This document shows, piece after piece, positions 3,201-64,000 of a DNA stretch of 64,000 nt (its first letter is position 1; every line of letters begins with the position of its first letter). A program made the translations under genes and the position numbers. Origin of the DNA: Candidatus Omnitrophota bacterium (GTDB lineage: Bacteria > Omnitrophota > Gorgyraeia > VGKN01); NCBI GenBank assembly GCA_043800345.1, contig JAZDNB010000009.1:27340-91339 (forward strand). The letters run 5' to 3'. The notes below the pieces were generated by a model. It did no database searches, was not told the origin of the DNA, and worked only from the letters and a program-made list of their open reading frames with translations.

Positions 3201-6200
3201 TTGGGTTATTTAAGCAGGGAAAAAATTGAGCGTATACTCAAAGTCGGCCAGGTTCTTCCGGAAGAACTGGAAATTGTAAGAAGACGTATTCTTAGCACAC
3301 TGGATATACCTATTTCTGCTAACGCGCGCCGTGTATTATCATATCTGCATATTCTGACAATGGCAGGAAGTCTTACTGAAATTTATCCAAAATTGATATT
3401 GCCGGCATATCGTAGAGATTATTTTTTGAAAGGCTTGATTGAATTAGGGAATATCGGGCTGGTAACTTTGGATACCGAATCGGGAATGCTAACCACCCCG
3501 TTTTATCACTATGAAAGTAAGATACAGGTGGTTGATGCGTTACAAGAACCTGGAATCTTGAAATGGTTAAAGGCCCGGATGGAACCGGGGCTCTATGCAC
3601 GGGATATTTGCGTTATGATATCTTCAGTTCAAGAAGCCGACCTTGCTATTAATAAGGCATTAGAAGAAGGTTTACCTCAGGTGCAACTATTTATCTCCCC
3701 GGGTAAGGATTTTGATGCAAAACAGGTCGGACAGATATTAGATTTCATAGATAAACGGCGAGCAGAATTAGAAAATTTCCCAATCCTTGCAGGAATAAAA
3801 CTATCTATTACGCCTGATAGCGATATACTTTCGCTTAGAGAATCGGTAGGAATTGCAAACGGGCCTTTGGTAAAACTCTTGAGGGAAAAACATATGCGCC
3901 TTGACTGTATTTCTTTTTCAAATGTCCGCATCCCGTGGATAGACATTGCTACGCGTACCAATGGGTTGGAAATACTAAGACACAATCTTGACAGCCTCCA
4001 TTTTTTTACGTCCTCTGCCACTATCCATCATCTTGATATCGCGAGGATTGAAATAAGTGCCTCTGAAGTTGAAAAATTAGTTGACTTAATTGATGGGGGA
4101 AAGCTTGAACCTAATAAATTAGAGAAAATATTTGCTATGTTAGCAGAATTCGGTATTCAAGTTGAATTGCCCGAAGCTCGTCTTGGACAAGATAAGGTAA
4201 GTATTTATTTTGAGGAAGTAATCAAAAGTTATAATGCTCGAGCTCCGCCGTCTAGACAGATTCAATTTACGGATTCCTCGCGCCATACAGTAGCACTCCT
4301 CCCTGTAGTAAAACGGCTTGGTGTATTAGAAGAAACCTTGCAGCAGATTTTTGAATCACGTCGGTTGAGCGAACAACTCATAGCATATCTTGATTCATAT
4401 TTAACCGCCCATTATACCCGTTTTGATGGAGATCTCGAGGCCCTTATCACCTCCCTTATCGATTCCTATTCCTTAGAATTAAAAACAGACTTTTCTCAAG
4501 TAATATATACGGGTAGAGAAAAAGGCATAGATCACTCCCTCTGGAACGATATGCCGGAGGAATTACGCAGGGTACTTATAAGGCGTAAATTAGACGGAGC
4601 AGATATAAGTAAAGATATAGCGCATTTCCTCGGAAATATTAAACCGGAAGACATCGAGTGGTTTGACATAGAAGATTTTTCTGTAAGAACACGCCATATC
4701 TATAAAATAAATTATAAAATTCAAGTTAAAATCAAGAATGTTCCAACTCCTATCTCCGTCTTTGTTAAAATCACTACTTCTGCCGAAGAAACATTTTGGG
4801 GTGAAACTGCACAACTATTGGGTTTATCCAACCTAAGGGTCGTTGGCCTCCCCGAGAAAGGAAAAGGTCTCTTGCTTATCGAGGCAGGGCCCGGCAGGAC
4901 TCTTGATGACATTTCAGCCAATGATTTACAAAACCGTGATATTGCCAAGGCAGTATTCTCTGCGTTAGGCTCATATGCGCTCCATGATGTGCTTTCCATA
5001 GGAGATGCCTCTTTAGCCAATAATTTAGTTGGTGAAAATATCAGCAATATCCTCTCAATAGATCATGTTGAGTGCCTGCGTAATGAACTTAATATCGGAG
5101 TCCAGTATAAGGCCGATAGAAGGGGTTTGTATCTGGTTACAAAATTACGCGATACACTTAGCCCTGAAGATATCACAGAATTGCTGGTAGCCTATGAAAA
5201 GTCATATATAGCGTCATATATGCACATTTTAAAGAATGCAGATGATATAGAACGCCTTATCATTAAGTATTTTGGTCAAGATAGCGATGCACTGGGCATA
5301 TTTAGAAAAAATCTTTTGCTCGTAGGATCTGATATTTGCGGATTTTTTGATACAAGCGAGAAAATGATCCTTGCGGATATGCCGATAACCAAGGCAATGG
5401 AACATATCCGAAACAAAGTCACCGATCAGGATCAGGCCCGAATAACAGCGCGGGAGGTTATGAATGAAATGGGACTTACTTCGGAGCTCCATATCAAGTT
5501 AATCAACGATGCATTATTCTCGGAACTATCCATAAAGGATACGCTTAGCCAATTAAGAAGGGTCGATATCTCGCAGCCATCAGGTCAACTGGAAAACTGT
5601 GTTATGAAAATTTTACGTAGGCTTGCAGAAAAACAGCTTTTGCAGGAACCGGAAATAGTGGGGATGTTAGACAACATGATAGCGGAAAATGAGGAGATTG
5701 TGCAACAGCTTAGAGCCGGTAGAAGCACATATGTTCCGCAATTACTCTTAGATCATCAGAGCGTTGAAGATTTAACAAGAGCATTCAATGCTATGGGCAG
5801 TCTTTATGGACGGTTGAGATTTTATAATTGGCGGACCAAAATAGACGAAAGGGGAGGTGTAAATAGAGATTGGGATTTTGAACACGGCAGCATGGAAGAA
5901 TTTGACGAATATCTAAGAGAGAATAATGTCTACTGGGCTTATTATAACAGAACCCATTCCGGTGAACATAAGAGGGATCTGAAAGATCGCGTAAGCGGGC
6001 TTGAAATACCTATTTCCCACCAAAAGGAAGGATTACGCACTATAGCCGATGTTATTAAAAAGACGGTAATAGATTTTATACATCAAAAATACGGCGAAGA
6101 CCTGGACGTTGAAGTAATCAGTATCCGCGTCAACGGAAGCAGATTTTATAAATTATCCACTACTGATAAAGCCGCAGATATAGACAATGTAACGGTAGTG

Positions 6201-9200: not shown

Positions 9201-12200
9201 CAGTCAAGCGTACTGGTAAATAATAGCGTTATATTTATAGCGGGTGGTTCTGCGGATGTGCTTATGAAAGGGGAGACAACCGAGGCTCTGCGCGGAACAG
9301 AAAAAGAGATTTACCGCTCAATGGTTGAAAATGCTCGTAGAGTTCAGACCGAAGACGGACAGGACGCATCTAAACGGTTGATATTCTTAGGAAATTTAGA
9401 GCATGAGACCGACGTACCCGAATATATGCGTATTCTTGCCGATGGTATCCCGCAAGAAGGAGTAGAGCACCCGCGGCCCGATCATCCGGAGGATTGGGCG
9501 GTGTATCCTTACGGCGTATTTATCAATCCGGCTTTATATGAACCGTTTGGCTTTACACTTCTTGAATCAGCTGCCTGCGGTGCCATACCGATTATGACCG
9601 CTAACGGTGGCGCTATAGAAGTTATCGATGAAGCTGTAAACGGATTTATCGTCAATCCTTCCGCACCCGAGAGTATCAGAAGAGCATTGCTCACCGTATT
9701 TTTCTCTTCCAATAGACAGACGATGAGTGAGGCGGCTATAACCAATGTAGAGCGTAACTTTTCATGGCCTCGACATGCAAGGGAAACTTTAAAGGTATAT
9801 AGAACCGTTACGGGAGAAGAAACGGAGGTAGCGGAATCCCTTGTCCAAAAAACATTTGATTATTATGATTCTTTTATAGCAGCGCCACAATATGTTGTGT
9901 CAGAAACTACTTTTACTCCGGAAGCGAAGATAGATGTATTGTTGGTTGAACCGCAGGATTTTGTAGACACGGCAGTTGCAATAGGAAAAGATATAATAGG
10001 CAGGTTCTCCGATCGCAGTTTAAGAGAGAAGATAGAAGAATACCGAAAGAGGGAAGTTAGAGAAAGAGTAAATCATGAAATCTTGAGAGCAGAAAGTATT
10101 TTCCAAGAGGCAGAGCGTATCAGGAGTGAAAATCCGGACAGCAGGGGTGCAGAAGAATTTGTTAAGAAAACCATTAGTTTGTATGCCCAAGCAGAAAATA
10201 TATATGCGAAGATCGGCGTGGCATTAAGATCTCCCGATGATATTATATCAAGACAGCAACAAATAGCACGGCTTAGAGAAAGCTATATCGTTACCTCAGG
10301 CTATGAGGATACAAGGCCTGATCAAATATGGTATGTTACCTGCTGCGACAGAGATATCGAGCCTCTTCTAGGGAGTTATCTTGAAGAATTAAAACTGTGG
10401 GGTTTCGGAGGAGACAGGATATATGATCCTATAGAGGGAGGAACTTATTATAAAAAAGTTGAGATAGCCATTTTTGAAGATAGCACTGACGAAACGATTA
10501 TTAACAAAAATTTAGCCATAATTGAAAAATATAGAAGTCTGGGGTTGAAAATCAGGTATTGCGGAATCGAAGATTCTTTAGTGAAAGATGCTCCCGAACT
10601 CGGCCCAAGAGACCGTGTTAGAAAACAGTTATGGTATACAAGCCAGAGAGATATTATCAGGTTTTTTGGTAAAGAGCGTGCATTAAGACTGCTGGGGATG
10701 TCGCCAGAGAAATTTGATCTGCCGGCAGAAAGACAGATTACAGAGACAGGGCGCAGAGGTTATGGCAATGCGAGAGAAGGGGTGCGGTTATGGGCGTTAT
10801 ATGAATATAATCGTATGCCTCATAATGTGCTTTTGGGTAGCATAGACGATGATGAGCCTATCGGTCAAATAATTCAGTCAGCAAGCGGCTACAAGGTACT
10901 AAGGCATGCAACTAACTGGTTTAATAACTATGGGAGAATGTTTGAGCGCTATCCCGACATTTCCATACTCTCCGGTAACGTTACGGGCGATAGCGCAATC
11001 GAAGGCGTTGCCCCAAATATTTTTGTTAAGACCTGCAGCCACTTATTGACATTGCTTGACTTTGCCTCGTTTCGTTCGCCACATGATGCTTGGCCTGCTG
11101 AAGACGATATAAGAGAATTATATAGAGCCCAGGCACCAAATCCTGCTTATGGGCTTAATCCCACAGCGCATGCGCATATTAATGAAAATATGGCAGCGCG
11201 GAAATATGCTCAGGCAACCAAGAAACAGTATCGTTTCCCAATCCCAGAACAAGGGCAACTGACGTTAGGTGAACAATTGAGGATGATTTTAGAAGACATA
11301 AATTCTGTATATTTTGGAAGATGGCTTACGAGGCCTATTCTTTATAGACATGGGGGAGTAGTAATCGGAGCCCAAGATGAGCCCATTCCTTATATAAGAA
11401 AAGCGCCTGAAGGTCCGGTCATGGGCGGCCTTCTTTTAATGCGGAAAGATGCTTTTGTCTCATGGCCTTTGCCAAAAGGCGGTTTTCATGATTTACGTTA
11501 TGCAAGTCCTACACATCTGCGCCTACTCCCGAAGTTCGGATTCCCCGTGCATGGAGTTTTTATGCCTGCGCGTCATCAAAGGACACAGGAATATCGTTTT
11601 GATCTAATGCAGAGCGAGGAAATGCTCGATTTTCAAAAAAAGATAAATTATGGATTGGAAGATGAAATTGGTAACAGGTTATTTTTTGCAATGCTAGATT
11701 TTTATCATATTGATAGCGCTGAAGGTTTACAGACCATGCCGTTTGATGCATCGGTATTTGCTCGAGAACACCCGGAGATTTACGATAGAATTGTGAAAGA
11801 TGCCGTACGCACTCAAATTACAAATATAAAAGAAATTAATCGGCTTGTCGGCTTACTTAAGGCGATGTTTAACCAGCAATATTGGTGGCAACTGGATTCG
11901 AATTTTACGCAGGCCATAACAGAGTTAAAACGATTTGTAGCTATAGCAGAGGCAAATTATGGAACATACGATATTACGGATCTTAACGTACGGATTAGAC
12001 ACTATATGGAAGAAACAGGATTTGCAGCTTTAACCGCATATCTTAACGGAATGCGTGACGGGATTGAGGTAGTGCATTCTGTTATTTCAGAAAAGATTAC
12101 ACTTCCTCCGGTAAAGTCTGTTTCCGAACTACCTATATCGGAACCGCAAACCCAATCCACCCTTGCCAATTTCTTCACCTACGCCCTGAAAGGTAAGTTT

Positions 12201-15200
12201 ACCGTCTTAAACTGGATAACGAGGATACTGGGACTACCCGCCATAGTTATGGAAGAACTCATCTCCCATTATCTTATCGGTAATTTCTTTGCACGGGTAC
12301 ATCTCCAGAGCCCAACCTTGAGCTATGTAGGGGTAAACATCGATACAAGAGCACCTCCTCTGCGTCAAGCCATCGTAAAGCTCCTCGGACCTCTTTCTAA
12401 CATCATTCTCCTTAGCCTATCCGCATACCTCTTATCTTCTACCCATCTTTCCGGGCTCCTTAGCGTAATTACCGCCTGGTCTTTAGTTGCCTCAGTACTC
12501 AGCATCGTTGCCTCAGTGCGCGGCTACGCTACCTATAAGACAGGCGACCTCTATGAGGCGGCGCAGCTCTTAAAAGGGAAATACCCAAGACTTATTTCTT
12601 TCCTGGGAATTGAAGAAAGCCGCCTGCTTAGCACACTTTCTAAAATTTCTATTACGTGTGCAATAGCGGCAGTCGTTACCCTTTATTCATTCTTCCGTGT
12701 TAATATCTTCTCCTCTTATACGCGCCCTATAGTCGGAGCGGATGTTTTTATATCTTTCCTGGCCGTTGCTGCATGGTTAATGTGGGTCCGCGAAATCTTT
12801 AATACTATATTTAACAGGGCATTATACATCTTGCGTAAGGGAATTCCCGAACTTACCAGAAGATCTCTTGTTGTTCTTATTGCTACAGGCATTATTGTTA
12901 TGACAAGCGTACTGGCTCCTTTCACCCCGACACTTAACTCAGACACATCTTATATGGCTAGTACGAGTACCCCCCTGGTTCAAAAAAATAATTTTGCCCA
13001 GCTCCCCAGTCAGCGCCTTCCAATAATTCAGGTGACGCCGGAGCTATATCGTGCGCCCGCAGCGCAAGAAGCACTGAGACAGATCACAAAAGAAGAACAG
13101 ACGACCCTTAACGTTATTTTCTCCGAATATGTTGCCCTAAAGAATACGCTAAGAAATAACGGGATAACACAAGAAGAAATCAATGCGCAGGCCGCCCGTT
13201 TTCTTACATCTCAGCTTAGCGCCAGGTGCCCAAGGCTTTATCCTCTATACCGGGAATTTGAAAGACTGTGTACGCGCTATGGCGAAGAAGGGCGCGTTCT
13301 CTTAGCGCTTGGTGCCGGAAGGGATCCTATTTTTGCCCCCCTTATCTCATTTTTTTCCGGTTATCTCGGATTTGGAAAGTATATCAAAGGCGAAGTTCCT
13401 ACTCATGCGGCATTAGTCTCATTAACAGGAGAGGGTAGTCCCATCATGTATGAGATGATACCGGGAAAAGACGTACGCGCTACCTCATTGATCGAATTTT
13501 TCATGCGGTATCCAACCGCGCAGTTATATCTCTTCCCGAAGACCGATACGACGTTGTTTGACGAATTATCCGTTTATTTACAACAACAGGTGGGGGCTAA
13601 GTCAGCATTCGGATATTTCAGCTGGGTTAACGGAAGATTTTTCGGAGGTTATTGCAGTGAATTTATTTATTCAGTGCTTATCAAGATATTTGGAAGTCAT
13701 TTTTCCATAGCACTTCCCGCATATCCACCTACAAACGGATGGTTGTTTTTTAGTCCTTTTGTGATGGGCTCAAAGATCATCTCGCCTCTGCAGCTGGGAG
13801 GATTAACAATTGACGGTAAGCCGCTCCAGCTTATATTTGAAGGTCCCGGATTTAGCGAGACTGTTGCTGCTGCCTTAGTAAGAAATATAGGTAACCTATT
13901 TATATGGGCAGGAAATCGCCTCATCAATGTAGTTAACAATACTGTCAGTCCGGTCTTCCAGCAGGTCCTGTTGTTTGTAGCAACAGGCGTTATACCTTTA
14001 CTGGTATTAGCAAAGAGAAGATTATTTTCATCCCGCCCCGCGCAAGAAACAACAAATGAGGCAGAAGCCGAAGGGCTAACTCTTCGAGAAAAATTAGAAA
14101 TAATCAGCGGAGTCTCCTTCATAGAGATTTTAGTAATTAAACTTTTATCCAACTATGTCGCCATCCCCCTTGCAATAGCGATACCGCTTTTGGCTTCTTT
14201 CATTTTATATGCAGCAGTAAAAAGAATCCCTCTTGAAACACAGGAAGATGCGCGGGATATTGATAAACGCGATACTACCCAATCCGCCCTTGCCAATTTC
14301 TTCACCTACGCCCTGAAAGGTAAGTTTACCGTCTTAAACTGGATAACGAGGATAGTGGGACTACCCGCCATAGTGATAGAGGAGGTCATCTCCCACTATC
14401 TTATCGGTAATCTCTTCGCACGGGTACGTCTGCAGAGACCGACCTTAGGCTATGTAGGGGTAAGCATCGATACGAGGGCACCGCCAACAAGGCAAGCCAT
14501 CGTAAAGCTTCTCGGTCCTCTTTCTAACATCATCCTCCTTGGCCTCTCCGCATACCTCCTTGCCAATACCCAGCTCTCGGGGCTCTTGAGCGCTCTCACT
14601 ATCTGGGCAGTTATCTCTTCAGCGCTCAGCATCGTTGCCTCACTACGCGGCTACACTACCTATAAGACAGGTGACCTCTATGAGGCGGCGCAGCTACTTA
14701 GGAAGACCAAAAAGCAACTTGAGCTGTCAGCAGATGATGAAATAATGCTAGGTACCATGACTCACGGGTGGGGTACCGGCATAAGATGGATGGTAGAGAA
14801 AGAGTCGATACGAGACCTGTGGACAATATCCAAACAATTTGAATTCCAGTTTGGCAATCTAAAAAAACGTTTTCTAAAAACCGAACATGCAAAACTATCT
14901 CCCTATGAACAGAAAATTTTCGATAAATTGGGAGAGCTCTACGTAGCGCTTACCGCATATAAACCTTCTTCGGTAACAATAGGAAAAGCGCTGGAAGGAA
15001 TTCTCAGCGAAGCAAGACGTCAGGAAGGAATTGACATTGCCGAACTCGGGGCTGCCCTAACAGAACTAGAGCAACGTTACGCAAATATTGAGAATGAATT
15101 TAAGCAACAGAAAACCCATGAAGAAATCGCCGCTAACCTCAAACAGGCAATGGCAGCGGCGCTACGTGCTATGATGCCCGGAACCCTGCAAGAAGAAATC

Positions 15201-18200
15201 ACAAGCCATCCTTTCTGGGGCAGGGCAATAGGATTTATGGTAGAGCATTATATTCCCGTAAGAGATCCTCGATATGTGGGCAGGCCCATCCAGGAACTTT
15301 ACCTCATCCTTCAGGAAACCATTAACACGTTATTTACCGAATACCATTACAAACAAGACGGACAGTATGAAGATAGCTATAAAGAAGTCAAGGCAAGAGC
15401 CAGAGAAAACGCTCTGCTTGCAGTAGGGATTATCCGTCCGATACTGAATGAAGTTTTTCAAAACGGCCCTCAAGTGGTTATCGGCGAAGATGAAAATCTG
15501 CGGCGTATCGTTACAAGTTTAGAAAATCAAAAACGGCATCTTACAGAACTTGACTATCAGGAATATATCGCACTTGCGCCTGAAGAAAGAAAATCAAGGG
15601 AGCCGGTTATCACCCGCATGGTCGAAGAAGAACGCAGCAAAAAAATGCATTGGCTTGCGTGGCCTGGACAGAATGAGTTCATCCATGAATTATTTATGGT
15701 GCGTGCTGAAGTATTAATCGGCGAAGATGCAAATTTGCACCACAGGTTTGCAAACTTAATAAGACAGAAACGGCGTCTTGCAGAACTTGCCTATCAGGAA
15801 TATATCGCACTTGCGCCTGAAGAAAGAAAATCAAGGGAGCCGGTTATCACCCGTATGGTCGAAGAAGAACGTAGCAGAAAAATACTTTGGTTTGCCTGGC
15901 CGGGACAGAATAAATTTATCCATGAATTATTTATGCTGCGCGCCGAACTGGAGACAGTGTATCTGTTAGCAATTGCCGGCAATACGATGGATTTTGGAGA
16001 CCAAAAGTTTGTCGCGCGCATTGAACAGGCACAGAAAGAAGGAAAAAGCAGTTTTGACTTTCTGCTTGAAGATGTGGTGAAGATATTTGAAGACGGCCTG
16101 AGTGCTCCTCATAACGTGGATGAAATGTTGGCAGATTTAGTAAAAGGAAGAAACCTCTTAGGAGCCAGACAAAAAAGAATGGGTGACGATTTTTCAGATG
16201 AATATCGTCCGAAGATTACCGTCCTATACGATAATGCGGGAGAGGATATACTGGAATTACTGCACGTTGAATTTTTATTACGATTAGGATTTAACGTGAA
16301 TATGGCAGGAAGGGCACTTCCCGTAATAAACGATGCTACGGCCGATGAATTACGAGATATAGTTACCTGTGTATCATTCCCCGACTATATGGACCGCGTG
16401 GACAAGGCCCGGAAAGCGCTGGGGATTAAAAATGACGCTGCCTGGCGCCAGCTTACACGGCTCAGAGGCGACTTCAACGTGAATTTTAGGATAAGACAAA
16501 GATGTAAGGCATTATCAAGCGGCTCTCGTCTCTACGGAACCGTTCCTGCGCAAATGAGCGAGGAATGCAAAAAAGAAATAGCAGAGTCCTTTATGGTTAT
16601 CGGTTTTGGCCAGGGGAATTTTGAAAGCGTATGGCCGGTATTATGGACACGGCCGTTTTATCATGTCCTGATGCTTAAGACCGCGGCACGGCTTGGAAAG
16701 ACGTTTTCCGACCATTTTAAGGATATGAGCAGGATTATCCTCTGCAATCCGGCGACAAACCGCGAAGAAGAAGAAAAGGCGGAGCAACAGCTGGCGGTAT
16801 CGGCAGGAGGTCTGAAGGCGTTAAATGCCGACGATCCAAGAGTTATAGCCGTGCTTAACGCAATGCGTGCCCACTTCGGAGAAAGGCTTCCAAGCTCGTT
16901 ATCCAATATATTTATCAGGGTCGAAAATTTTATTCCCGGCGGTGTAGTTGGCGAGACGCAGATAGCTATGGCGGCAGAGCGGGCAGTAAAGAAGATGTTC
17001 GGCAAAAACGTGCTTATCGGCCCTGACGAAGAGCAGCTTAGGCTCTTAGGGCAGGCGGGCAATGAAGATATGTGGTTTGTGGTGCTGAGCGGTAAGTACT
17101 TATATATAGGAGATAATACCCACATAGGACCGAATTCCATAGTGGATAATAGCCGGCTTGGCGCTAATTGTCTCGTGGTAGATTCAATGCTGGATAATAC
17201 CTCGCTAAGCGCCGGTACGACCGCAAGGCGTTTAATAAACCGCAGGGGGATTTTATCAAGAGGCCTGAAACTTGAAGATTATGGGGAGATTATGGAGCAT
17301 GGCAGCATTGAGCCGCTCTCGGCAAGAAAGGTGTTTCTGCGCGAGTTACGCAAAAAAGGAGTTACGATAATTGCCCCCTGGCTTACCTATATTGATTCCT
17401 CTGTCACCGCAGATCAGATAGAAGAAGGCGTAGTGCTGCTTCCCGGCGTAGTTATCAGGCAGGATGATGAGGCCAAAGGAAGCGTCCGCATAGGAAAGGG
17501 ATGCGTTCTTGGTTTGGGCGCAAAGATAACAAATACCGTTATAGAATCTTCCGTAGAAAGGCCTACCGAGGTTATTTCCTCATCATTAATGGATTGCCAT
17601 GTTGGAAGCGGTATTAAGATGACATTGGAAGAGCTAGAAAGAGAATCGATCGTTTCCGGCACTTTAAAACCACAGGAAGAACAATTACCGGTCGGATTAT
17701 TATTTGATGAACAGGGTAGCATAACAGGAAGACGTTACAGGATCAACCCACATTCTGTTTTAGAGACAGTATCTAACGAGGAGTATTACCGCCTAAGCCA
17801 AGCCGCCATGAAGGAATATCGGCAGGACTTAAGAAAAAGGCTTGCCGATAGCAGGGAAAAGGCTGAGGAGCTCGCCAAAGAAAAGGGAAGGCCTGTGACA
17901 GCGCGTAAGAGGAATAATGTAACACGATCAATAGAGTTTGTATTATCGCTTGCGCATCTGCCTCAGATATTGGCAGAGCGGTACGTATATGATTGTTTGT
18001 CAAAGACTACAGCCGTTTCTCCCTTGCAAAGGAGCAAGGAAAGGTATAACCGGGCGGCTTTTTGCGAACATCCCTTTGCAGATGATAATGAGACCACATA
18101 CTATTCATTCTTAAGAAGAGAACTCTATAAGATACCGGATGAATCAAAACGTCTTATATGCGCCTTAAAACTTGTTGCATTGGGTAATTACTTTGACCGG

Positions 18201-59404: not shown

Positions 59405-59541
59405 TCACCTAAACGTAATCTTGCCCCATAGTATAATTCGATAATGATGCAATATCCTTAAGAGAAACCCGTATATTTCCACTTTTTAAAACAGATTAAA
59501 TAAGTTGATATGGTATTGAATTTTTTTGTAATTATGCAAAA

Positions 59542-59563
59542 AAACTGTATCAAAACTGTATCA
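59542..59563 (+). promoter_or_regulatory. Tandem 11-bp direct repeat AAACTGTATCA x2, 17 nt upstream of the -35 element; candidate transcription-factor site
   Basis: aaactgtatca aaactgtatca lies directly in front of the promoter at 59580. Confidence 0.35.
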
Positions 59564-59579
59564 TGAACGGAGAATTTCC

Positions 59580-59608
59580 TTGACAAAATGAAAGGAGGTG
59601 CATATAAT
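59580..59608 (+). promoter_or_regulatory. Sigma70-type promoter for the efflux-like operon: TTGACA (59580-59585), 17-nt spacer, TATAAT (59603-59608)
   Basis: Perfect consensus hexamers with 17-nt spacing, about 150 nt upstream of the TTG start at 59755. Confidence 0.6.
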
Positions 59609-59635
59609 AATAAAAAATTTTAATCCCACACTACG

Positions 59636-59686
59636 CCCCGCGTTGCGGAATGGGTGTGACTGTGCTCTATGAACCTGCGTTCATAG
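59636..59686 (+). promoter_or_regulatory. Two small hairpins in the 5' leader: CCGC-gtt-GCGG (59636-59648) and CTATGAAC-ctgc-GTTCATAG (59667-59686)
   Basis: Perfect inverted repeats with 4- and 8-bp stems. No T-tract follows, so they are not intrinsic terminators. Possible leader structure or operator. Confidence 0.35.
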
Positions 59687-59754
59687 GCGCGAGATTGGAA
59701 AAATAGAAACCACGGGTATTAACCCATGGAGCTTCATAAAAAGGATTCAAATTA

Positions 59755-62454
59755 TTGAGCAAAAAATGCTCCTTCCTTTTAAGAATTCTTTCCTTCCTTT
59801 TTGTTTTATCTTTATATAGCGCAGATTCGTTTTCTGTTGAATTTCATTCCTTACAAGTTAGAGATATAAACGTAAAAATCCTCAAAGATATAACCCGAAT
59901 AACCGTTACTGCCGATAAACCCATTGTGTATTATGAAACAGACGAGTTTGAGGAACCCTATACCCTCATAATAAGCATTCCGGAAGCCACACTTTCTTTT
60001 TCTGACGAACCGCATATGATCATGCCGCTTAAAACTCCATATGTGAGCGAGGTGAGATTACACCAGTTATACGACCGTCTTGCCTATCCTCCCAGGATCC
60101 TCAGAATAATCATTGAATGTAAACAAAAACCGGAATATACAATAGATACGACAGCAAATAATATAACGATGAATATTGACATAGGCGCGTCAAAGGCTCT
60201 CTCGCCACAGAAAGACAAAGAAAAAATTAGTCAGGAAGTATCTACAGAGAAATATCAGGCGCGCATAGGAGAAGCAAAAGAAAAAATCTTTGAGGATTCC
60301 CTTAAGCAGGCACAGGAGAAAGAGCTTAGGGTAATGCTTGAGGAAGAGAAAAAGGAACGTCTCTTAGCAAAAGAAGCACAAAGAGTAAAAGAAGAGGCAA
60401 GACAGAGAGAGCTTAAGCAGTTAAAAAATGACCTCCAAAAAGCTATTCAGCAGGAACGCTACGAAGAGGCGGCGCGGCTCCGTGATACAATTAAAAAGCT
60501 AGAAAAAAAAGAGATGCTTGAAGAAGCCCCCTTAAAAGAAGCACCGCAACCTATAGAAAAAAGGCAACCATCAAGGGCGGGGGAGGCGCTTAGTAGGCCG
60601 TTACGAAAAGAGAGTCAGATTGACGCTCTCAAACAGAGACAGAGAGAGGCAGCAAAAGAAAAAGCACTGGAAAAAGCCCTTCAAGATACAATGCGCGAAG
60701 AAGAAGAAAAAACATTCCCGGAGGCCCAGGAAGATACGAGAGAAGAAGAACAAATTGTCCCGGAGGAAGAGGTGCCTCAGGAGGAGTATGCGCCTCCCCC
60801 GGATCAGGAACATAGCTCGGCAATGGAAGAAGAGCTTTTGCGTTTACAGAAGCAAGAAGAAGTATCTAGAGAGCCCATCGAAGAGGTTGTGCAACCCTCT
60901 TTTAAAGAGGAGCCAGAGAAAAAATCGGCAAGAAAAAAAATAGAGGAGAAACCGCAGGAAGAGCCGGTAAAGAAAGAATCCGGCAAGACAAAAGGAATTG
61001 AACAGAAACCTCCTACAGTTGAAGAACTCCTCCGGAAAGGGGAAGAAGAAAGTAAAATAGTAGGTGCCGCGCCTAAAAAAGAAGAAAAAAAACCAAAGAA
61101 AAAAATAGCAACATTACAAGAGTGTATTGATATAGGACTTGAAAACCACCTTCCCGCAAAGATAGCGCTTGATGAAGTGAAATTAGCAGAACTCAAGCTA
61201 ACAGAGGCAAAAAGGGCACTGTTTCCTTCGGCACAGTATAGAATTAACCAGACCGAAGGCGATATATATGATATCGGATTTATGGAGCGGGAATATACCC
61301 TTAAGATGGAACAGCCGCTTTATTACGGGGGGAGATTAGGCGATGCGGTAAAGAAAGCCCAGCTTAACCTTGAAATTGCAAAACGTAACTATAATAAGGT
61401 GAAAAGCGACCTTATAGAAAAAATAGAGGCAAATTTCTATAGTTTTGTAGGTGCGCAGATGGTAGTTGCGGCCCAGGAAGAATTAAAAGCTGAGGCAGAG
61501 CATATACTGGGTATTGCAAAGCGAAGGTTTGATATGGCGATGTCGACCGAGGTTGAATACTTAAACCTGCAAAACCTGTATGCACAGATACTCTACCAGA
61601 TCAATGCGGCACAGATGGAGATGGGCTCAGCCAAGGTACAGCTTGAACATACACTGGATTTGGACCCATCATATGAGATCGAAATTAAAGAACCGCTGCA
61701 GTATGCAAAGATAGATATAGACCTTGATAAAAGCCTTGCACTCGCATACCAAAACAGAACTGAATTATTTATCAGTGAATTGACAGTAAGAGTGAATGAA
61801 CTTGAAGAAAAAATCACTAAAAATAAAAATCGTTTTAAGATAGATTTTACCGGTTCTTACGGTGAAGGAGGCGGTGCTTATGAGAGTGAGTCGCTTACCC
61901 TTGGCAATACCTGGTATGCTGGTTTTTTATTTACAAAGCCGTTAGGAGGAAATACTATTAGCTATAATTTTACCAAAGATGCAACCGCACCCAAACTTGG
62001 CCAGAGCTCAAGAACGGGCTCCCAATCTCACATATGGGAATTTAATCTGCTTAACAATATTGGACGCTACTCGGAAGAAAAAAGCGCTCAAATAAACTTG
62101 AAAAAATCCATTAGTGATTTGAATGAGATGAAGAAAACTGTGTCAAGCGAGGTAAGGGAGACATTTTTTAGATATGAAAAAGCCATTATGCAGGTGGACG
62201 GCGCCACGATAAAAATTCAGTTGCGGCAAAAATCGATTGAAGTGAATCAGACGAAAGTCGATTTAGATGAAGCGCTTTTATCCGAGCTTCTTGAAAGCAA
62301 AATAAAACTTACCGACGAGAAAGTTGCATATTTAAATGCGATAAACAGTTACTATAGCGCAATTTCTAGCATTAATAAAGCTATTGGGTTAGTCGGTTTC
62401 TATCAGGTAGAAACTCCGCCGCAGGAAGTAGCCGTGCCGGGAGGAAAAAAATAA
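59755..62454 (+). CDS. Outer-membrane efflux factor (TolC-like) with an N-terminal signal peptide, an AMIN domain and a long K/E-rich coiled coil containing a UVR motif. Predicted TTG start.
   Basis: Signal peptide MSKKCSFLLRILSFLFVLSLYSADS. AMIN-like beta-rich segment FSVEFHSLQVRDINVKILKD...NITMNIDIG. UVR-like motif QQERYEEAARLRDTIKKLE. C-terminal region LQECIDIGLENHLPAKIALDEVKLAELKLTEAKRALFPSAQYRI... is typical of outer-membrane efflux protein (OEP/TolC) repeats. AAAAAGG lies 11 nt upstream of the TTG. Confidence 0.7.
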   Translation: MSKKCSFLLRILSFLFVLSLYSADSFSVEFHSLQVRDINVKILKDITRITVTADKPIVYYETDEFEEPYTLIISIPEATLSFSDEPHMIMPLKTPYVSEVRLHQLYDRLAYPPRILRIIIECKQKPEYTIDTTANNITMNIDIGASKALSPQKDKEKISQEVSTEKYQARIGEAKEKIFEDSLKQAQEKELRVMLEEEKKERLLAKEAQRVKEEARQRELKQLKNDLQKAIQQERYEEAARLRDTIKKLEKKEMLEEAPLKEAPQPIEKRQPSRAGEALSRPLRKESQIDALKQRQREAAKEKALEKALQDTMREEEEKTFPEAQEDTREEEQIVPEEEVPQEEYAPPPDQEHSSAMEEELLRLQKQEEVSREPIEEVVQPSFKEEPEKKSARKKIEEKPQEEPVKKESGKTKGIEQKPPTVEELLRKGEEESKIVGAAPKKEEKKPKKKIATLQECIDIGLENHLPAKIALDEVKLAELKLTEAKRALFPSAQYRINQTEGDIYDIGFMEREYTLKMEQPLYYGGRLGDAVKKAQLNLEIAKRNYNKVKSDLIEKIEANFYSFVGAQMVVAAQEELKAEAEHILGIAKRRFDMAMSTEVEYLNLQNLYAQILYQINAAQMEMGSAKVQLEHTLDLDPSYEIEIKEPLQYAKIDIDLDKSLALAYQNRTELFISELTVRVNELEEKITKNKNRFKIDFTGSYGEGGGAYESESLTLGNTWYAGFLFTKPLGGNTISYNFTKDATAPKLGQSSRTGSQSHIWEFNLLNNIGRYSEEKSAQINLKKSISDLNEMKKTVSSEVRETFFRYEKAIMQVDGATIKIQLRQKSIEVNQTKVDLDEALLSELLESKIKLTDEKVAYLNAINSYYSAISSINKAIGLVGFYQVETPPQEVAVPGGKK
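59833..60185 (+). other. AMIN domain (peptidoglycan-associated beta-sandwich found in AmiC and PilQ N-termini)
   Basis: FSVEFHSLQVRDINVKILKDITRITVTADKPIVYYETDEFEEPYTLIISIPEATLSF...VSEVRLHQL...PRILRIIIECKQKPEYTIDTTANNITMNI shows the alternating-strand pattern typical of AMIN. Confidence 0.5.
60190..61090 (+). other. K/E/Q-rich low-complexity coiled-coil linker containing a UVR-like motif (60448-60506)
   Basis: QQERYEEAARLRDTIKKLE matches the UvrB/UvrC UVR motif. The surrounding sequence is an EEKKER-type charged repeat with poly-A nucleotide runs. Confidence 0.5.
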
Positions 62455-62499
62455 AATTTTGTATAATGATATCTCAATAAAGAATACGAGGAGGTAAAC

Positions 62500-63852
62500 A
62501 TGCCGCTTAAGAAAAAAAAGCTTTTCTTTATGGTGTTTATAGTCATAGCAGGTGTCCTTATTCTCTACGCCTATAACACATTTATAAGAAAACCAAAACC
62601 GCTTAAAGAGGAAGGGGTAAAAAAAGAAGAGGTTCAGAAAGAAGAACAGATTATACCGGTACGAGTCTTTAAGGTTGCAAAACAGGATTTTGTCGATTAT
62701 TTTCCCAGCATGGGTACTGCAAAGGGCGCGGCGGAGGTGAATCTTAAATTTGAAGCCACAGGTGCTATTGAGGCACTGAACTATAAAGAGGGTGATGTAA
62801 TAAAAAGAGGCGATGTGATCGCTACATTAAATCAAAGAGATGCACAGCTTAATATTGAATACAATAAGTCTAAGTTAAAAACAGCCCAGGCAGAGACTCA
62901 GGCAGTTAAGAAACGCCTGGAGGTATATCAAAAGCTCTATGAAGCAGGTTCAATCATAAAAGCAAAATTGGATGAGATAACGCAGGAATTTGAGGTAGCA
63001 AAATCAAAGGTAGAAACGGCGAAGCTCGAGGTGGAACACGCTGAAAATGAGCTGGAGAAACAATCCCTCTTTGCGCCGATAGACGGAGTCCTGACGGCAA
63101 AGGATGTCGAGATCGGAGAACTTGCAAATGCCAATACAAAGGTGGGGACTCTTAGCGATCTCAGTGTTATGTATATAGAAATAGGGCTTACCGAGAGCGA
63201 TATCGAGAAGATAAAGGTAGGACAGACTGCAAAGCTTAATTTTGATACATACCCCAACCAAGAGTTTAATGGTGTTATTGATAACATATTCCCGCAGATA
63301 GAAGGTAAAAGCAGGACCCTTACGGTAAAAATAAAGGTTGATAACAAGGATTTGCTGATTAAGCCGGGGATGTTTTCCAGGGTAGCAATAAAAATATTCG
63401 AAAAAAAAGATGCCTTGCTTATACCGGTTGGCGCCTTACGGGGTAAAGAAGGAAAGTATTTCCTATTTTTAGCAAAACAAGAGGGGGCTGCGCCACAGCA
63501 AGAGGACAAAAAAGAAGAACCGGGAAAATACGTGGCCCTCCAACGGGAAGTGAAGCCGGAATATAGGACAATAGAATCAGCTGTTATCAAAGAAGGCTTA
63601 AGCGAGGGAGATCTGGTGGTTACGGAGTCGCAGGGGGAACTGAAGGACAAAAGCCCCTGTGAAGTATTAGAAATACAAGAATCCGGTTCTAAAGAATCGC
63701 AAAAAACGGAATCGGAAAATGAACAGCCCATGCTAGAAAATCCGGAGTCTGCCCAGCCTCCGTCAAATTTGCTGGACATGCAAAAAATTATGGAAGAAAA
63801 ACTTAAAGATAAAAATGCCGAATCTGAGCAACCGGACGTAAGTCAAGAATAG
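62500..63852 (+). CDS. HlyD-family membrane-fusion (periplasmic adaptor) protein of a tripartite efflux system
   Basis: Strong Shine-Dalgarno GAGGAGG 6-7 nt before the ATG. N-terminal TM anchor MPLKKKKLFFMVFIVIAGVLILYAY. Lipoyl/biotinyl-like segment KEGDVIKRGDVIATL. Coiled-coil hairpin rich in A/E/K. Beta-barrel segment VGQTAKLNFDTYPNQEFNGVIDNIFPQIEGKSRTLTVKIKVDN typical of RND/ABC efflux MFPs. Charged low-complexity C-terminal tail. Confidence 0.75.
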   Translation: MPLKKKKLFFMVFIVIAGVLILYAYNTFIRKPKPLKEEGVKKEEVQKEEQIIPVRVFKVAKQDFVDYFPSMGTAKGAAEVNLKFEATGAIEALNYKEGDVIKRGDVIATLNQRDAQLNIEYNKSKLKTAQAETQAVKKRLEVYQKLYEAGSIIKAKLDEITQEFEVAKSKVETAKLEVEHAENELEKQSLFAPIDGVLTAKDVEIGELANANTKVGTLSDLSVMYIEIGLTESDIEKIKVGQTAKLNFDTYPNQEFNGVIDNIFPQIEGKSRTLTVKIKVDNKDLLIKPGMFSRVAIKIFEKKDALLIPVGALRGKEGKYFLFLAKQEGAAPQQEDKKEEPGKYVALQREVKPEYRTIESAVIKEGLSEGDLVVTESQGELKDKSPCEVLEIQESGSKESQKTESENEQPMLENPESAQPPSNLLDMQKIMEEKLKDKNAESEQPDVSQE

Positions 63853-63874: not shown

Positions 63875-64000
63875 ATGAAGTATCGTGTAATGTTAGTCAC
63901 AATACTAGGGTTCATTTCTTTTTACTATCGGTTTTCTTTTGCCGATACGGTAGTTTTAACTAGCGGTGTTGAAGAAAAAGGTATAGTTGTCGAAGAATAT
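63875..64000 (+). CDS. Start of a secreted or membrane protein (MKYRVMLVTILGFISFYYRFSFADTVV...), 3'-partial at the window end
   Basis: ATG 22 nt after the previous stop. Hydrophobic signal-peptide-like N-terminus. The frame is open to the end of the window. The RBS is weak. Confidence 0.3.
   Translation, partial: MKYRVMLVTILGFISFYYRFSFADTVVLTSGVEEKGIVVEEY

Follow-up and report, generated by a model that had tools for sequence, protein, structure and literature searches.

We analyzed a stretch of 64,000 nucleotides from a Candidatus Omnitrophota bacterium (assembly GCA_043800345.1, contig JAZDNB010000009.1, positions 27,340 to 91,339), hereafter called the window, and concentrated on two genes at its right end that encode an outer-membrane factor (OMF) and a periplasmic adaptor of the membrane fusion protein (MFP) type. 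The region probably comprises the promoter, two genes and the start of a third gene of a conserved resistance-nodulation-division (RND) efflux operon, similar to MdtABC and MuxABC-OpmB, whose exit duct would be tethered to peptidoglycan. The OMF joins an AMIN domain through a long charged linker to a TolC-type channel, the adaptor belongs to the RND class, and RND permease genes follow in orthologous loci. The efflux system as such is well known; a TolC duct tethered to the wall would be an uncommon and uncharacterised form of it.

Two giant open reading frames (ORFs), 153-34280 (11,375 aa) and 34427-59404 (8,325 aa), make up 92% of the window, and the OMF and adaptor genes follow them on the same strand. 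The OMF gene (59755-62454, TTG start) encodes 899 aa and the adaptor gene (62500-63852, ATG start) 450 aa; both pairs of coordinates agree with those of a preliminary description of this DNA. The 899-aa OMF is 100% identical to the NCBI entry 'TolC family protein [Candidatus Omnitrophota bacterium]'. Inspection of the ORFs revealed no pump gene within the 64-kb window. The features of the region are as follows.

59541..59562, forward strand: tandem direct repeat of 2 x 11 nt (AAAACTGTATC AAAACTGTATC), candidate regulator-binding site (repeat search)
59580..59608, forward strand: sigma-70-type promoter TTGACA-17-TATAAT (12/12 consensus match)
59612..59754, forward strand: leader of about 140 nt with three hairpins, lineage-specific (RNA folding)
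59755..62454, forward strand: OMF with signal peptide, AMIN domain, charged linker and TolC-type channel (ORF, Pfam, NCBIfam)
59755..59823, forward strand: signal peptide, residues 1-23 (sequence reading; AlphaFold2 helix at residues 2-20)
59824..60192, forward strand: AMIN domain, residues 24-146 (Pfam, phmmer, AlphaFold2, Foldseek)
60193..61110, forward strand: charged linker, residues 147-452 (composition, AlphaFold2, ortholog alignment)
60406..60510, forward strand: UVR-like motif, residues 218-252, genome-specific insertion (Pfam UVR)
61111..62451, forward strand: TolC-type domain with two OEP repeats, residues 453-899 (Pfam OEP)
62488..62494, forward strand: ribosome-binding site GAGGAGG of the adaptor gene (sequence reading)
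62500..63852, forward strand: periplasmic adaptor (MFP) of the RND type, 450 aa (TIGR01730)
63875..64000, forward strand: start of the third operon gene (42 codons up to the window end), which encodes a secreted TPR and double PDZ protein (translation, ortholog match)

The adaptor and the genes that follow it

Against the profile TIGR01730 (RND_mfp) the adaptor scored 217.8 bits (cutoff 94.9), with a match that covers residues 54-387 and profile positions 1-319 of 322. Its best named equivalog-type match was the MdtA/MuxA family (E 2.5e-29, below cutoff), and the Pfam domain HlyD_D23 was found with an E-value of 2.4e-29. On the contrary, the profile TIGR01843 (type_I_hlyD) gave 39.2 bits and did not reach its cutoff of 208.65. 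The preliminary description had spoken of an HlyD adaptor; the adaptor as such is confirmed, and it is of the RND type and not a type I HlyD. The protein starts with a membrane anchor helix and ends in an acidic low-complexity tail. Five nucleotides ahead of its ATG lies the sequence GAGGAGG (62488-62494), in agreement with the strong GGAGG ribosome-binding site reported before. The tail (63670-63849, about 60 aa, acidic and rich in S, E, Q and P) is longer than in the orthologs, and charged low-complexity extensions are found in this lineage on all three of OMF, MFP and the first RND permease.

Orthologous loci reveal what lies behind the adaptor. In locus L001 (GCA_964506845.1; OMF 59% identical) the order is OMF, MFP, a protein with TPR and two PDZ domains (317 aa), a HAMP protein with two transmembrane (TM) helices (196 aa), an ACR_tran permease (1,519 aa) and a second ACR_tran permease. 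Locus L002 (GCA_020052955.1; OMF 56% identical) encodes OMF, MFP, the TPR and double PDZ protein (339 aa), the HAMP protein (196 aa) and an ACR_tran permease (1,657 aa); behind this permease comes a short UPF0758 gene, and no second RND permease was found there. In L010, from a JGI metagenome, OMF, MFP and TPR/PDZ genes are present before the contig ends. The adaptors of these three loci are about 66% identical to the adaptor of the window, and the 42 codons at 63875-64000 are similar to the N-terminal ends of the TPR-PDZ proteins in L001, L010 and L002 (E 8e-12, 2e-11 and 6e-7, respectively). Since these 42 codons match and the adaptors are so similar, synteny extends to the window edge.

To judge from these relatives, the RND permease genes very likely start roughly 2.3 kb past the window end. 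The preliminary description had expected the pump beyond position 64000, and synteny agrees with this, since in the orthologous loci the RND permease lies two genes after the TPR-PDZ position, as it presumably does here. Its argument was that the next ORF starts like a secreted protein. This ORF is the ortholog of the TPR-PDZ member of the operon and does not point to a pump located elsewhere.

The first permease of L001 scores 770 bits on ACR_tran, and its best NCBIfam matches, MdtB and MdtC among them, are families of multidrug RND permeases. MdtA/MuxA, MdtB and MdtC are among the best named matches, all of them far below the equivalog cutoffs. Of the related loci, six reach past the adaptor, and all six encode ACR_tran permeases. 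No ABC exporter gene was found within 10 kb downstream in L001, L002, L005, L007 and L008.

These data bear on a type I-like secretion system, in which OMF and adaptor would cooperate with an unseen ABC exporter to export the giant proteins or fragments of them. A giant gene indeed precedes the operon in the window as well as in L001 and L002, and the Pfam domain names of the adaptor include 'HlyD'. However, the adaptor passes the RND_mfp cutoff and stays far from the type_I_hlyD cutoff, and all six loci that extend further encode ACR_tran and no ABC exporter. Furthermore, the giant proteins carry membrane-spanning modules and are therefore not soluble type I substrates. We consider secretion of this type highly improbable.

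The two small genes between adaptor and permeases were inspected in L001. The TPR-PDZ protein (14284-15237) is secreted; it combines an N-domain of the Leptospira type with a single TPR and two PDZ domains and is devoid of a protease domain. The HAMP protein (15385-15975) has 196 aa, two TM helices and a HAMP domain, and lacks an output domain.

Domain architecture of the exit duct

The OMF starts with a signal peptide, as had been proposed. By inspection it consists of a K-rich n-region (MSKK), a hydrophobic core and the motif SFS/VEF. No cysteine follows the hydrophobic core, hence sequence inspection gave no lipobox. The TTG start and an AAAGGA element resembling a ribosome-binding site are kept in three loci (the window, L001 and L002). 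The TolC-type domain of the preliminary description was recovered with the suggested OEP profile, which matched in two stretches with 109.3 bits (E 2.7e-31, gathering cutoff 22). Moreover, a family profile of the TolC part matched the solved structures of TolC, OprM and CmeC (E 2e-15 to 3e-8), TolC and OprM in two stretches each. Neither TIGR01844 (type I secretion TolC; 62.7 bits, cutoff 225.15) nor TIGR01845 (NodT/OprM lipoprotein OMF; 18.9 bits, cutoff 210.05) reached its cutoff. In our own reading, the start of the domain around residue 453, with the motif L-x-E-C-I-D-I-G-L, would correspond to the N-terminus of mature TolC.

The AMIN domain was likewise predicted before, and Pfam, reciprocal phmmer matches to the AMIN domains of PilQ and AmiC and the fold of an AlphaFold2 model all support it. 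A phmmer search with OMF residues 23-150 against a library of 1.84 billion representative proteins returned seven proteins (E 5e-10 to 6e-4), namely an ortholog, three secretins, one Amidase_3 enzyme, one AMIN-only protein and P0006. The secretins are of the PilQ type and the amidase is of the AmiC type. In the five matches that carry a Pfam AMIN domain, the aligned region lies on this domain or overlaps it; P0006 is without Pfam AMIN. The AlphaFold2 model of the domain is all-beta with 10 strands (predicted local distance difference test, pLDDT, 85.5). In a Foldseek comparison with solved structures it matched AmiC best (4bin; E 4e-4, TMq 0.67), followed by the AMIN/B2 parts of PilQ (4aqz, 3jc8 and 4av2). 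The N-domain is thus predicted to have the AMIN fold, a two-sheet beta sandwich like that of AmiC 4BIN, with the caveat that known AMIN sequences were part of the modelling alignment.

AMIN domains are reported to bind peptidoglycan and to localize the envelope proteins AmiC and PilQ (PMC2572700; bioRxiv 10.64898/2026.07.30.741596). By analogy, the domain of the OMF would bind peptidoglycan and target the OMF within the envelope. The AMIN subtype is rare, with one 50%-identity cluster at E < 1e-30 among the 1.84 billion representatives. A search with the full-length OMF, which was swamped by K/E-rich low-complexity candidates, found four 90%-identity clusters. A profile search with the AMIN alignment in a word-indexed protein database returned a single, irrelevant match. 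The preliminary description had called AMIN-TolC fusions unusual. The rarity holds, but the architecture was already listed in 2008 (PMC2572700).

The linker (residues 147-452, 306 aa) is 48% charged (E 22.5%, K 16%, P 6.9%, hydrophobic residues 18.6%) with a net charge of -7. With modest confidence, AlphaFold2 predicts helices for residues of about 166-254 and 281-320, whereas about 321-421 come out as disordered; about half of the linker contains proline and is predicted to be disordered. In the two helices, the best register reaches a hydrophobic a/d occupancy of 0.32 and 0.25, while the helices of the TolC part reach 0.47-0.70, as determined by a simple count of hydrophobic a and d positions and not by a dedicated coiled-coil predictor. 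Due to this low occupancy, the segment is a charged helical-plus-disordered tether and not a canonical coiled coil. A K/E-rich coiled coil of about 300 aa had been described at this place; K/E-rich and charged it is, but it lacks a heptad pattern and is predicted to be disordered over about half its length. The linker measures about 306, 231, 197 and 238 aa in four orthologs, in whose alignment two islands (about residues 176-213 and 418-452) are conserved.

Within the linker, Pfam UVR (PF02151) matched residues 218-252 with 32.5 bits (E 6.7e-8, gathering cutoff 21.5), and the segment also gave a partial McsA match (26.4 bits). The motif reported earlier is hence present. Its helix-hairpin form is not, since in the AlphaFold2 model the segment is part of one continuous helix. 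It is absent from all three orthologs (P0004, P0003 and P0002) and is an insertion private to this genome. Consequently, we rejected the UVR motif as a conserved functional part of the OMF family.

The extension might be a largely neutral, lineage-specific decoration that arose by domain accretion and low-complexity expansion and has little effect on the pump. Linker length and sequence indeed vary widely among orthologs, the UVR segment is private, and the adaptor and RND permease 1 bear charged low-complexity tails as well. On the other hand, the AMIN domain is 50-52% identical among the orthologs of four genomes and has many invariant positions. The 13 closest relatives of the TolC part (24-44% identity) are 572-764 aa long, and 13 of 13 therefore carry an N-terminal extension of 120-300 aa. 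Together with the two conserved linker islands, this argues for selection, and we regard a neutral decoration as quite unlikely.

In RND pumps, substrates enter through the RND trimer, either out of the periplasm or out of the outer leaflet of the inner membrane; the adaptor spans the periplasm, and the exit duct is a trimer of the TolC type. We propose that the operon encodes such a tripartite pump, driven by the proton-motive force, with the order seen in the orthologs: OMF, RND-type adaptor, TPR and double PDZ protein, HAMP protein, RND permease 1 with a tail and a winged helix-turn-helix (wHTH) domain, and RND permease 2 (L001). In TolC, the N-terminal helix starts out from the equatorial domain, and this domain is proposed to contact peptidoglycan, which is found at the TolC-AcrA interface (PMC13082787). 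From the position of the TolC N-terminus at the equatorial domain, tether and AMIN domain would emerge at wall level in the periplasm. Here the N-terminus of the duct may continue into the 306-aa charged tether, partly helical and partly disordered, that ends in the AMIN domain. Three AMIN domains per trimer could then bind peptidoglycan and anchor the duct to the wall. Alternatively, AMIN might localize the duct to certain wall regions, for instance septal or polar ones, as for AmiC and PilQ. A tether of this length and flexibility would provide reach, not rigidity. The substrates are most likely small amphiphilic or toxic molecules and not proteins.

Several points weigh against a wall-tethered RND pump as just described. 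The Pfam AMIN match is marginal and partial (PF11741; 21.7 bits, gathering cutoff 20.5). A profile built from the orthologs only found no match among the PDB sequences, and matches to PilQ and AmiC structures appeared only after intermediate AMIN sequences had been added, which is partly circular. The AMIN homology therefore draws on intermediate sequences and on a predicted fold. The AlphaFold2 monomer of the full-length OMF is poor (pLDDT 50.5, about 25-70 in the TolC part), which affects the geometry of tether and trimer. The linker varies in length and sequence (197-306 aa), and the adaptor and RND permease 1 have similar charged extensions; it could therefore be a low-complexity expansion typical of the lineage and under little specific constraint. 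As to the substrate class, no match reached an NCBIfam equivalog cutoff. Finally, the RND genes of this operon are deduced from loci with OMFs that are 56-59% identical.

Promoter region and the giant genes upstream

The OMF gene is preceded by TTGACA and TATAAT with a 17-nt spacer (59580-59608), a 12/12 match to the consensus. Both hexamers are invariant in an alignment of the window, L001 and L002 and are also present in L010, thus in four loci, and the operon indeed possesses the promoter of its own that had been postulated. Seventeen nucleotides upstream of the -35 element lie two copies of AAAACTGTATC (59541-59562), direct repeats of 11 nt spaced by one helical turn. The repeat is unique in the window, where 0.02 matches are expected by chance. 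It is kept upstream of the orthologous OMF genes of L001 (~9553-9574), L002 and L010 (~78-98), and a related copy is found at the same position in the distant operon L007 (321-342), the OMF of which is only 39% identical. The layout of direct repeats, 17-19 nt, TTGACA, 17 nt and -10 element recurs even there, and promoter and repeat are kept in five loci altogether. The repeat looks like a binding site of a winged-helix-type regulator.

Downstream of the promoter, the leader (59612-59754) is about 140 nt long and GC-rich and folds into three hairpins (-44.4 kcal/mol, z = -3.3). We tested it as a riboswitch or small RNA and rejected both, since there was no Rfam match and no tRNA, it is not kept in relatives, and neither the window nor the loci contain a further copy. 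The leaders of L002 and L010 are short, while L001 carries an unrelated insert of about 400 nt (~9620-9985) full of GC-rich palindromes. Between the -10 element and the ribosome-binding site lies an insertion hot spot.

With the second giant gene ending at 59404 and the OMF gene starting at 59755, the operon lies directly downstream of the giant genes, as the preliminary description had stated. No terminator-like site was found on the plus strand between the giant-gene stop and the promoter, and read-through from the giant gene may therefore occur. A giant gene is directly upstream of the operon in the window and in L002, and in L001 a gene for a 962-aa HD-domain protein intervenes. We rejected orthology of these upstream giant genes across loci, since their 3' parts in L001 and L002 share only a membrane module of about 140 aa with the second giant of the window and nothing with the first.

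Side by side, the giant 3' parts of L001 (2-6547) and L002 (1-9849) reveal shuffled shared modules; for example, residues 1-420 in L001 correspond to 2857-3265 in L002 with 49% identity. Giant-gene content turns over much faster than the neighboring operon. The second giant of the window has only sparse Pfam matches, namely two modules with metallo-beta-lactamase fold, a starch-synthase GT5 domain and a domain resembling PRK/uridine kinase. Internally, a membrane module that bears a HELGHWKD motif is repeated in near-identical form (about residues 1377-1509 and 4593-4739).

The pump might be coupled to the giants without exporting protein, by moving a small molecule, lipid or glycan made by their enzyme modules. 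In its favor, the giant-gene neighborhood is kept in the three closest loci with visible upstream sequence, the second giant has starch-synthase-type glycosyltransferase, kinase-like and metallo-beta-lactamase-fold modules, and a terminator-like site is missing before the operon. Against it stand the conserved promoter of the operon and the differing giant-gene content between loci. Furthermore, distant operons lack an adjacent giant gene. L005 has none, and in L008 the only gene of >2,500 aa lies 3 kb upstream. The contig of L007 starts 412 nt upstream of the OMF gene, so that upstream genes are not visible there. Since large genes are frequent in this phylum, a chance adjacency of giant gene and operon is plausible. 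We also considered co-regulation through a shared operator and rejected it, since the repeat occurs once in the window and is missing upstream of the second giant (34427-59404); the upstream region of the first giant is outside the window, and the comparison thus covers the second giant only. Taken together, coupling of the RND pump to products of the giants appears unlikely to us. The adjacency is conserved only in the closest relatives.

The preliminary description had further suggested that the operon may export products of the megaproteins or proteolytic fragments of them. This idea found no support: the adaptor is of the RND type (39 bits on type_I_hlyD), the pumps of the related loci are ACR_tran proteins, ABC exporters were not found in these loci, the repeat is absent upstream of the second giant, and the giants are unrelated across loci apart from the membrane module, which also speaks against type I-like secretion. 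Gene content and cis-elements give no positive sign of an export of megaproteins or their products, and the pump type argues against protein export. The papers on Omnitrophota giant genes that we read do not mention TolC, efflux or RND near these genes. For the question of the giant genes our result is mainly negative, in that their neighbor, probably an RND pump and not a protein secretion system, provides no route for megaprotein export.

Comparison with known systems and relatives of the duct

The closest characterized systems are MdtABC-TolC of E. coli and MuxABC-OpmB of P. aeruginosa. The adaptor is nearest to MdtA/MuxA, the relatives encode two tandem ACR_tran permeases, and the OMF is encoded in the operon as in MuxABC-OpmB. 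However, the OMF gene comes first here and adds an AMIN domain and a 306-aa tether, TPR-PDZ and HAMP genes lie between adaptor and permeases, permease 1 of the relatives has a long C-terminal tail with a wHTH, and all scores remain far below the equivalog cutoffs.

De Souza et al. (2008, PMC2572700) listed AMIN fused to two OEP domains in 'at least one instance' and, as a separate case, AMIN joined to a charged helical segment that resembles TolA. The OMF described here unites both architectures (AMIN, charged helical region and two OEP domains), in Omnitrophota and in a conserved operon. We found no experimental study of an AMIN-TolC duct or of an AMIN protein with a TolA-like region in the literature. 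A 2026 preprint describes an analogous fusion with TonB-dependent transporters from cyanobacteria, and in AMIN-bearing secretins and transporters of this kind the domain is thought to anchor or localize the machine at the wall (bioRxiv 10.64898/2026.07.30.741596). PilQ secretins and these transporters likewise carry one AMIN domain between signal peptide and outer-membrane channel module. In contrast, the channel is here a TolC-type alpha/beta duct and not a secretin or 22-strand barrel, and the spacer is far longer. TolC-type ducts hence join secretins and cyanobacterial TonB-dependent transporters as outer-membrane channels fitted with AMIN.

TolC itself has a separate lipoprotein partner, YbjP, which is anchored in the outer membrane and has no firm peptidoglycan binding (eLife 2026, PMC13082787). 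In both cases an element is added at the equatorial domain and N-terminal helix near peptidoglycan, but here it is fused in cis and of a wall-binding type. Tripartite pumps are among the best-studied envelope machines, and still the position of the duct relative to the wall is debated, as the proposed contact of the TolC equatorial domain with peptidoglycan and the recently found YbjP illustrate. A natural duct with a cis-fused AMIN domain offers a ready test of what wall anchoring means for pump assembly, localization and envelope integrity, and sister ducts with TonB_C or TPR modules at the same place add to this test.

OmpM and SlpA consist of an SLH domain, a true trimeric coiled-coil stalk and a trimeric barrel. 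The logic of tether and channel is the same, with a wall-binding N-domain, a spacer and a trimeric channel, whereas the OMF has AMIN instead of SLH, a different channel fold and a linker without heptad pattern. The AMIN-tether-TolC trimer might accordingly be mainly structural, a staple between outer membrane and peptidoglycan analogous to OmpM/SlpA, with efflux as a second role. This would fit the predicted wall-binding N-domain, long spacer and trimeric outer-membrane channel, and sister OMFs with TonB_C and TPR N-domains point to N-terminal anchoring modules clade-wide. Yet the OMF gene would be transcribed together with the other genes of a complete pump operon, and a flexible, partly disordered tether of 200-300 aa would make a poor rigid staple. 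A mainly structural role therefore seems unlikely to us.

Among the relatives of the TolC part, Pfam found TonB_C in three, a weak AMIN in one and TPR-like domains in others. For P0015, identity of the N-domain as AMIN is weakly supported (hhalign E 4.7e-5); for the next-closest OMFs, P0011 and P0012, it is not supported (hhalign E 0.14). The sister OMFs P0013, P0014 and P0016 (L007 413-2242) carry a TonB_C-like N-terminal domain where AMIN sits here. In this lineage, TolC-type ducts seem to carry an N-terminal periplasmic module as a rule.

The distant operons L005/L006, L007 and L008/L009 always have the order OMF, MFP, (small gene), ACR_tran, ACR_tran. A DeoR-like wHTH ends the first RND permease of L001 (16099-20658), L002 (15861-20834), L005 (9030-12743) and L007 (3578-7165), with 33 bits in L007 and 19-21 bits in L001, L002 and L005 (gathering cutoff 21). 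It is preceded by a cytoplasmic low-complexity tail of about 80-600 aa that is rich in P, E and K. We found no description of a pump-borne DNA-binding domain in the papers that we read. The co-occurrence of the permease wHTH and the promoter direct repeats suggests that the operon may be autoregulated by the pump-borne wHTH. Going further, one could imagine a self-regulating, wall-anchored efflux machine peculiar to Omnitrophota, in which the duct doubles as a tether between outer membrane and peptidoglycan in analogy to OmpM/SlpA and the wHTH of permease 1 binds the 11-nt repeats and reports the state of the pump to the promoter; we hold this full combination to be improbable.

One of the related operons, L003 (= contig CAZDNS010000010.1), is labelled 'uncultured Planctomycetia bacterium' and is orthologous to the operons of metagenome-assembled genomes labelled Omnitrophota; the label of this contig is possibly wrong.

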